NCBI GenBank assembly: GCA_000004695.1
Contig: CM000153.2
Coordinates: 5,152,001 to 5,216,000, forward strand
Length of the DNA stretch: 64,000 nucleotides
DNA from: Dictyostelium discoideum
Taxonomy: Eukaryota
Direction of reading: 5' to 3'
In this document: positions 45,882 to 47,603 of the stretch, piece by piece
Position numbering within the stretch: position 1 is the stretch's first letter
Layout: the number at the start of each line of letters is the position of its first letter
Position numbers and translations under genes: made by a program
Notes under the pieces: model-generated
What the model saw: the letters and a program-made list of their open reading frames with translations, nothing else
Database searches by the model: none
Told to the model about the DNA's origin: nothing

Positions 45882-47603
45882 TTAATGATGTTTTTTTTCT
45901 TTTAAATTAACATCAAAAGCTTTTTTAAAACCTTCATAAACAATAAAAGTTATTGAATGAGATGGAATTGATTTCATAAAGGAAGGTACTATACCTTTAT
46001 AAAGACCGATTGGACCTTCTTTTTTAATGATTTTAGTTAAACCATCGAATAGGCCAGTGTATTTCTCTTGATTGACAGAACTACCTTGAGTGATTAATCT
46101 AGATTTAACAACATGGAATGGATAACCAACCAATTGACCACAAACACTACTAGTTGAAGCACAAACTAATAATTGTCCAGCTGTTGGGAATTCATTACCT
46201 GTCATTTTAATAACTTTATGTTTAAGGAATTCATAGACCATCATGTTGACGCCCGAATGGGGAATGGTTGCTGTAATTGAGGCACCTAAACCTCTATAGA
46301 ATGGTCTAATTGATTTCTCTGAAATTGCAATCTTTTTAAAACAATCGAAAATACCATTATAGGTTCCTGCTATCTCTGCTGATAATCTTAATCTTACAAC
46401 TTCAAGTGGAAATAATGTTGTATGAGAAACAACACCTGCAACTGAACCGCTAATAAATCTTTGTGCTGATGTTAGTTCACAATCATTTTCTGCAAATAAT
46501 TTCTTTACATATTCATATGTACCAAATTTAACTGCACTCTCTGGACTAACTTTAATAATATTTGCCAAGTTACCTCTATTTTTTTTAATTATTTATTAAT
46601 TAAATTAATTTATATATTTTTTTTTTTTCCACATTTTAAATATATTCAAAAAAAAAAAAATACTAACCTAAAGAAACCTTTAATTCCACCATCTTTATAA
46701 CATGCTTTAAAAGCTGAAATTAAAGAAATTGGTTTACCATGATTTAATTGACACATAATTTTAACTCTTTCTAATGGTGCAGTTGATGTACGACTTGCAA
46801 AACCTGCAACTGAACCAGCTATTTTTTAATTTTATTTTATTTTTTTTTTTTAAAAAAATTTATATAAATTAATATCACTTTTTATTTTATTATTTATTAT
46901 TTTTTAGTATTTCAAAAATTTTAAAAAATATTTACCTAACATATACTTTTCATTTTTCAATTATTTAAATTTTATTAAAAAAAAAAAATATTAATATTAA
47001 TTTATTTAATTTATTTTTTTATTTTTAATTTATAATTACAGTAATCGTATTTCTTAATGATGAAGCTTTTTCTTTTTTTTCAACCATTGGTGGAATGAAA
47101 CCACCATTATCAAAACCTGCATCTAAAATTTGAGAATCTTTCCAAAATGAAATTATTAATTGAAGATTTGAATTTGGTAATAAAACCAATAATTCTCTCC
47201 ATTCATTAAAATCGATTTGATTATCACGATTTTTATCAATACGATGGAATAATCTAATTAATTCTTGTTCACTATAGAGTGGAATATTTAACTTTTTAAT
47301 TGATTCTTCAATTTCATGGATATCCAATGTTCCAGATTTGTTTGTATCTAATTCTTCAAATACAATTTTTAATTTCTTTATATTTTCAATTGTAAAATCT
47401 TCAAATTCCTTAAAACTAACTGATCCATCTTTATCTTTATCAACATTTGTTAAAAAACTTTCAATATCTTTCTCGGAGGATGGAATTCTTAATTTAAAAA
47501 AACCTTCTTTAATTTCTTCCCTTGTTAATTTACCATTATTGTCTTTATCTAAAGAGTCAAATAATTTTTTAACAAATTCTTTATCATTTTCATTTAATAC
47601 CAT
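45882..47603 (-). CDS. Calcium-binding mitochondrial carrier (short CaMC / ATP-Mg/Pi carrier-like) with N-terminal EF-hands. Proposed exons on the minus strand: 47603..47049, a 10-nt microexon 46945..46936, 46818..46668, 46575..45882.
   Basis: The EF-hand exon has four D-x-[DN]-x-[DN]G loops (DKDNNGKLTREE, DKDKDGSVSFKE, DTNKSGTLDIHE, DKNRDNQIDFNE). Carrier repeats are AGSVAGFASRTSTAPLERVKIMCQ and SGSVAGVVSHTTLFPLEVVRLRL, with the typical PxxxxK/R pattern. The frame between the GTAATT donor at 47048 and the AG|CTGGTTCAG acceptor at 46818 closes only if TATATGTTAG is included, bounded by AAAAG| and |GTAAAT. The microexon is inferred from frame only. Confidence 0.55.

Follow-up and report, generated by a model that had tools for sequence, protein, structure and literature searches.

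A predicted 10-nt coding microexon in mcfC, an SCaMC-type mitochondrial carrier gene of Dictyostelium discoideum

The SCaMC or APC carriers (SLC25A23/24/25; yeast Sal1) are Ca2+-regulated mitochondrial ATP-Mg/Pi carriers which, like the McfC protein described here, combine an N-terminal domain of four EF-hands with three Mito_carr repeats. In Dictyostelium, short introns are recognised as units (intron definition). According to Yu et al. 2022 (PMC8831610), the splicing machinery is unable to assemble on both splice sites of a microexon simultaneously, and the introns flanking plant microexons tend toward late splicing. For D. discoideum, Ma et al. 2015 (PMC4683709) reported 40 putative intron gains, for most of which a source sequence was not found; an intron was taken as gained when D. 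discoideum had it and D. purpureum, Heterostelium (P. pallidum) and Cavenderia (D. fasciculatum) all lacked it. A search for literature on Dictyostelium microexons found no paper, the sole relevant match being a TopHat command-line option. The only mention of mcfC found in the literature was in a review, where it was listed as differentially expressed in cln3- cells.

Analysis of the window, by which we mean the whole 64,000-nucleotide stretch of DNA, showed a G+C content of ~15-30% throughout and a gene on the minus strand (47603-45882) that is best read as four exons, the second being a putative microexon (Table 1). The four-exon product of 472 aa was string-identical at all 472 residues to XP_001733022.1, EDR41049.1 and UniProt B0G159 (P0047). 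B0G159 (UniRef100_B0G159) carries the name "Mitochondrial substrate carrier family protein C" and is from D. discoideum AX4; as the product is identical to an AX4 protein, the locus is nuclear DNA of D. discoideum. In a protein search, the spliced product matched a 472-aa D. discoideum cluster with 99% identity, of which B0G159 was one member. We take DDB_G0287009 to be the identifier of mcfC. The coding sequence of 472 codons was uninterrupted when the microexon was included and the intron between 46667 and 46576 was removed. The three introns had an A+T content of 92-96%, compared to 68-76% in the exons. Judging from the sequence and the orthologues, we put at about 0.93 the probability that 46945-46936 (minus strand) is a coding microexon that is constitutively included as the second of the four exons of this SCaMC / ATP-Mg/Pi-type carrier gene.

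Table 1. Features of the mcfC gene, with positions as in the window
Feature	Position	Strand	Length	Description
Exon 1	47040..47603	(-)	564 nt	188 codons, ATG at 47603-47601; codes for the four-EF-hand regulatory domain and linker; phase-0 end, ...NTIT
Intron 1	46946..47039	(-)	94 nt	96% A+T, GTAATT...AAAAG, phase 0
Predicted microexon (exon 2 of 4), TATATGTTAG	46936..46945	(-)	10 nt	Codes for Tyr189-Met190-Leu191 and the first base of Ala192
Intron 2	46819..46935	(-)	117 nt	95% A+T, GTAAAT...AATAG, phase 1
Exon 3	46668..46818	(-)	151 nt	Carrier helix H1 and first signature (AGSVAGFASRTSTAPLERVK...GFFR)
Intron 3	46576..46667	(-)	92 nt	GTTAGT...AATAG, at FFR/GN
Exon 4	45882..46575	(-)		Remainder of the carrier domain; TAA stop 45884-45882

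On the minus strand, the 10-mer was found in the context ...AATGAAAAG/TATATGTTAG/GTAAATATTT... (slashes mark exon-intron boundaries). It is internal and falls within the ≤15 nt class, and its borders, AAAAG/TATATGTTAG/GTAAAT, were canonical; this acceptor and donor could be read at 46945-46936 just as the initial annotation had described them. Exon 1 ended with AAT ACG ATT ACT/GTAATT (boundary 47040/47039, GT at 47039-47038), which agreed with the earlier claim of a phase-0 end at this donor, although the coordinate given for it, 47048, was ~8 nt away from the actual exon end at 47040. The start of exon 3 at 46818 (AATAG/CT GGT TCA GTT GCA GGT) required one preceding base and was in phase 1, as had been proposed for the carrier exon. 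Insertion of the microexon changed the phase from 0 to 1 and gave ...N-T-I-T-Y-M-L-A-G-S-V-A-G-F....

All internal exons bounded by AG and GT in the 221-nt gap between exons 1 and 3, with a length of 1 mod 3 and no in-frame stop, were enumerated. This revealed exactly one frame-restoring candidate, the 10-mer, which leaves introns of 94 nt and 117 nt. When the gap was shuffled, at least one frame-restoring candidate was present in 35% of the sequences, and in 6.6% when a GTAA donor and a length of ≥60 nt for both introns were required. Splice-site geometry by itself is not beyond chance; it is suggestive, an indication and no proof, and it is not our main argument because candidates are expected in ~7-35% of shuffled gaps. 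What takes the microexon above chance is the orthologous sequence, together with the finding that the spliced product matches the annotated protein exactly.

The frame could also be kept with no microexon if a phase-1 donor within exon 1 (G/GTTTCA before 47101, G/GTGGTT before 47104 or G/GTTTTG before 47116) were joined directly to the acceptor at 46818, with the deletion of 20-25 residues of the linker; over all the alternative phase-1 donors, the loss would be 20-62 conserved residues. These donors were the only other canonical frame-keeping GT sites, but they are weak compared to the GTAA and GTTAGT donors of the three mcfC introns. A direct junction would lose the conserved GGF-PP segment of the linker and the [Y/F]-M residues that every orthologue has. 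It also disregards an intron position that is conserved in D. purpureum and P. violaceum, and it leaves an invariant 21-nt island, described below, unexplained. As the deposited protein does not have the direct-junction form either, we regard this structure as very unlikely. Non-canonical direct junctions from the phase-0 donor of exon 1 were considered as well and rejected; the three in-frame starts were preceded by AA, AA and TA and are located just past an in-frame TAA.

Orthologous loci were fetched and the proteins were mapped onto the DNA. The loci of T. lacteum, C. fasciculata, Heterostelium album and Balamuthia mandrillaris, the last an amoebozoan outside the dictyostelids, were each found to have one continuous exon in this region, with no intron (...T-x-x-[Y/F/H]-M-x-AG...). 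In these intron-less orthologues TAT ATG xxx GCT GGT was contiguous with both adjoining exon parts, as seen in the DNA of Tieghemostelium lacteum (ACT CTA ACT TAT ATG GCA GCT GGT) and Cavenderia fasciculata (ACC TAT ATG GGT GCT GGT). D. purpureum and Polysphondylium violaceum had a single intron at the exact phase-0 position of D. discoideum intron 1, with the junctions CTT ACT/GTAAGT...TATAG/TAT ATG ATT GCT GGT and TTT GTT/GTATGT...TATAG/TAT ATG GGT GCT GGT respectively. These two junctions show that the carrier exon of the relatives has a conserved start, which corresponds to the TATATG of the microexon. Two introns around TATATGTTAG were present in D. discoideum (two strains), D. citrinum and D. 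dimigraforme. The motif [Y/F]-M-x-A-G was kept in all of the dictyostelid orthologues, and Balamuthia had H-M-L. The proposal that a 10-nt microexon is needed to keep the frame was therefore borne out, as it provides the sole canonical frame-keeping path, retains the conserved residues, corresponds to contiguous codons in the intron-less orthologues and yields the AX4 protein.

In D. purpureum, the annotation of the mcfC orthologue (GL871042.1, L005:2145-3858) consists of two genes, one for an EF-hand protein of 210 aa and one for a carrier of 285 aa that begins with MIAGS. By this precedent, the D. discoideum locus would consist of an EF-hand protein and a separate carrier starting at the Met of ...YM.... 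We consider this highly improbable, as a single unbroken exon encodes the EF-hand and carrier parts in four dictyostelids as well as in Balamuthia, and the D. discoideum ATG is within the 10-nt island, with no promoter-sized space. In the D. purpureum DNA itself an in-frame intron, GTAAGT...TATAG (about L005:2926-2998), connects ...QNTLT to YMIAGS.... On this sequence, the D. purpureum two-gene model is probably a split-gene annotation error.

In an alignment of three species (D. discoideum, D. citrinum and D. dimigraforme), the longest invariant run was AAAG-TATATGTTAG-GTAAATA (21 nt, 46949-46929). Invariant columns made up 39% of intron 1 and 20% of intron 2, and all 10 of the 10 microexon positions were invariant in D. 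citrinum, D. dimigraforme and the two D. discoideum strains. The introns flanking the microexon differed by large indels among the three species. Intron 2 of D. dimigraforme contained an (ATT)n run of ~190 nt (L010:2200-2375), intron 1 of D. citrinum contained an (AAT)n run (L011:2075-2110) with the microexon unchanged, and the second D. discoideum strain had several intron indels and the same microexon. A 21-nt island amid diverged introns is what would be predicted if a coding microexon and its splice sites were under purifying selection.

With its 95% A+T and its homopolymer runs the interval is error-prone, so that the frame problem could be an artefact, either an indel that hides a single intron or the decay of a pseudogene. 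The initial annotation had named a frameshift or sequencing error here as grounds for rejecting the microexon. However, the same island and the same outer splice phases were seen in D. citrinum, D. dimigraforme and another D. discoideum strain, whose assemblies are independent. A phase-0 start of exon 3 would require an acceptor in the nine-base stretch that separates an in-frame TAA from GCT, and no AG precedes any of the three possible starts. Additionally, the full ORF was intact and its product was 60-74% identical to the other dictyostelid orthologues. An error or a pseudogene is thus exceedingly improbable, and the microexon remains our preferred reading.

At intron 3, the 474-aa model of D. 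dimigraforme reads FFR-KR-GNLAN, with an annotated CTAG/ acceptor 6 nt upstream of an AAAAG/ (L010:2522-2600). Use of the downstream AAAAG/ acceptor would restore the conserved FFR-GNLAN. Either the two acceptors form a tandem pair or the model is mis-annotated here.

Pfam analysis of the 472-aa product gave EF-hand matches at residues 8-139 (two pairs of EF-hand_7, plus EF-hand_1/5/6), and four 12-residue EF-hand loops could be read from the sequence: DKDNNGKLTREE, DKDKDGSVSFKE, DTNKSGTLDIHE and DKNRDNQIDFNE. The N-terminal domain matched the SCaMC-1 regulatory-domain structures 4N5X and 4ZCU (E 4e-23). PF00153 (Mito_carr) matched in three stretches (E 4e-69), with the first repeat at residues 185-271. 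A phmmer search aligned M190-L191-A-G-S-V-A-G with F11-L12-A-G-G-V-A-A of the bovine ADP/ATP carrier 1OKC. In an AlphaFold2 model (mean pLDDT 77), residues 179-203 formed one helix and the carrier domain contained six long helices; the linker (157-180) was poorly conserved and had low model confidence. From the position of the first Mito_carr repeat, the 1OKC alignment and the modelled helix, the N-terminal part of carrier helix H1 is predicted to receive three hydrophobic/aromatic residues from the microexon.

The best non-amoebozoan matches were to SCaMC-1/SLC25A24, with 37-38% identity over 96-97% of the length, so that the nearest full-length relatives beyond the clade were SCaMC proteins rather than aralar/citrin or other carriers, and by sequence McfC is classed as a putative SCaMC/ATP-Mg/Pi-type carrier (SLC25A23/24/25). 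The third signature has no acidic residue in either protein, being PFHVVK in McfC and PLALVR in SCaMC-1. The likeness of the microexon-encoded residues to the start of SCaMC carrier domains, drawn in the initial annotation, was found to be a loose one, as the aligned columns of mammalian SCaMC-1 read R-Q-L-L-A-G-G. No paper was found in the literature on McfC transport or its Ca2+ regulation. Two of the orthologous proteins differed at their N-termini: that of C. fasciculata (P0004) had an extension of ~75 aa without a counterpart in the other orthologues, and a EukProt model (P0005) had an extension, also without a counterpart, and an extra PF11976 match. Both are likely to be over-extended or fused gene models.

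The predicted order of junctions in the mature mRNA is ...ACGATTACT/TATATGTTAG/CTGGTTCAG..., and the stretch across both junctions is AATACGATTACTTATATGTTAGCTGGTTCAGTTGC. An exact search for the 35-nt spliced junction among metagenome contigs gave no matches, which is uninformative as to splicing. Four Logan contigs that encode the C-terminal 228 aa of McfC were genomic and contained introns. Skipping of the microexon, which would give the junction ACGATTACT/CTGGTTCAG, results in a frameshift, a stop after 15 codons in exon 3 and a 203-aa EF-hand-only product; retention of intron 1 leads to a TAA after four codons.

With lengths of ~90-120 nt and an A+T content of 92-96%, all three mcfC introns fit recognition as intron units, and each of the two that flank the microexon could be spliced by itself under intron definition. 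Simultaneous assembly on both would be hindered by the 10 nt that separate the 3' from the 5' splice site, and introns 1 and 2 are probably removed one after the other. Besides being structurally necessary, the microexon could be a facultative switch, its inclusion regulated in development or starvation so as to tune the abundance of the carrier; we hold this to be very unlikely. If it were skipped, the outcome would be an NMD target or a soluble protein of 203 aa with the EF-hands only, and, given the young intron downstream, such a switch would be a recently evolved regulatory device. Constitutive inclusion remains the reading we favour.

The distribution of the introns was used to consider how the microexon could have arisen. 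Intron 1 had no counterpart in T. lacteum, C. fasciculata, H. album or Balamuthia. Intron 2 was confined to the D. discoideum clade, being missing in D. purpureum, P. violaceum, T. lacteum, C. fasciculata, H. album and Balamuthia. Intron 3 was likewise found in the D. discoideum clade only and was missing in D. purpureum, P. violaceum, T. lacteum, C. fasciculata and H. album. Gain and loss were compared by parsimony over eight taxa with a phylogeny from the literature, which is the accepted one for dictyostelids. In the history that we infer to be the most parsimonious from these sequences, an ancestral continuous exon would have gained the upstream phase-0 intron 1, which is common to D. purpureum, P. 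violaceum and the D. discoideum clade, and the lineage of D. discoideum, D. citrinum and D. dimigraforme would then have gained a second intron 10 nt further downstream, splitting off the microexon. The alternative to these two successive gains is repeated independent losses. As introns 2 and 3 are both restricted to the D. discoideum clade, two lineage-specific gains in mcfC are suggested. A blastn comparison of introns 1-3 with the window returned short low-complexity A/T matches only, and no parental sequence or introner-like copies of these introns were seen in it.

The sequence around the gene was also inspected. At 47642-47679, 39 nt upstream of the mcfC start codon, there was a homopolymer of 38 nt, consisting of A on the gene strand, and A/T-rich periodic repeats continued upstream of mcfC to 47841. 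Further upstream, at 48375-48794, there were tandem repeat arrays with units of 30, 33, 63 and 66 nt and 78-88% matches; on the minus strand these read as repeated units of the ...SGSISVDI... type that were interrupted by stops. Two ORF fragments of 81 aa and 103 aa at 49625-50252 (minus strand) resembled exons of a Snf7/ESCRT-III family gene. D. citrinum and D. dimigraforme both had a Snf7 (PF03357) gene upstream of mcfC and an actin-family gene downstream, and with these neighbours synteny is conserved.

The microexon is already in the reference annotation, so that it is a correct observation and no discovery. The AX4 reference model must contain it, because the product is identical and only one canonical path gives this product. 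The residues YML were also found in models of other D. discoideum strains, D. cf. discoideum, D. citrinum and D. dimigraforme. The remark in the initial annotation that microexons of this size are rarely annotated does not apply here, as RefSeq/UniProt and six newer Dictyostelium assemblies all carry the microexon. As the AX4 protein may have served as a guide for the newer annotations with YML, these are not independent evidence.

A reading of the raw sequence, made without tools, thus recovered a correct and hard feature of gene structure, and the AX4 model of mcfC is sound. The present analysis adds comparative proof, a date for the microexon and some annotation errors in related genomes; the dating and the split in D. 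purpureum do not change what is known of the protein family. If the history given above is right, mcfC would be a clean natural case of the birth of a microexon through intron gain, and this in an organism where splicing follows intron definition.

Introns 2 and 3 of mcfC, present in D. discoideum and missing from the relatives, correspond to gains in the sense of Ma et al. 2015 (PMC4683709) and are likewise without a source sequence. DDB_G0287009, the presumed identifier of mcfC, had no entry in the supplementary table of that study (PMC4683709), and the split D. purpureum model may have kept mcfC out of its orthologue set. The putative gain of intron 2 differs in that it also creates a microexon. 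Like the plant microexons described by Yu et al. 2022 (PMC8831610), the one in mcfC is an internal coding exon of ≤15 nt between GT-AG introns, preserves a conserved domain and is easily missed by gene finders. Unlike them, it is amoebozoan, is flanked by introns of ~100 nt with 95% A+T, is young and not deeply conserved, and was already annotated.
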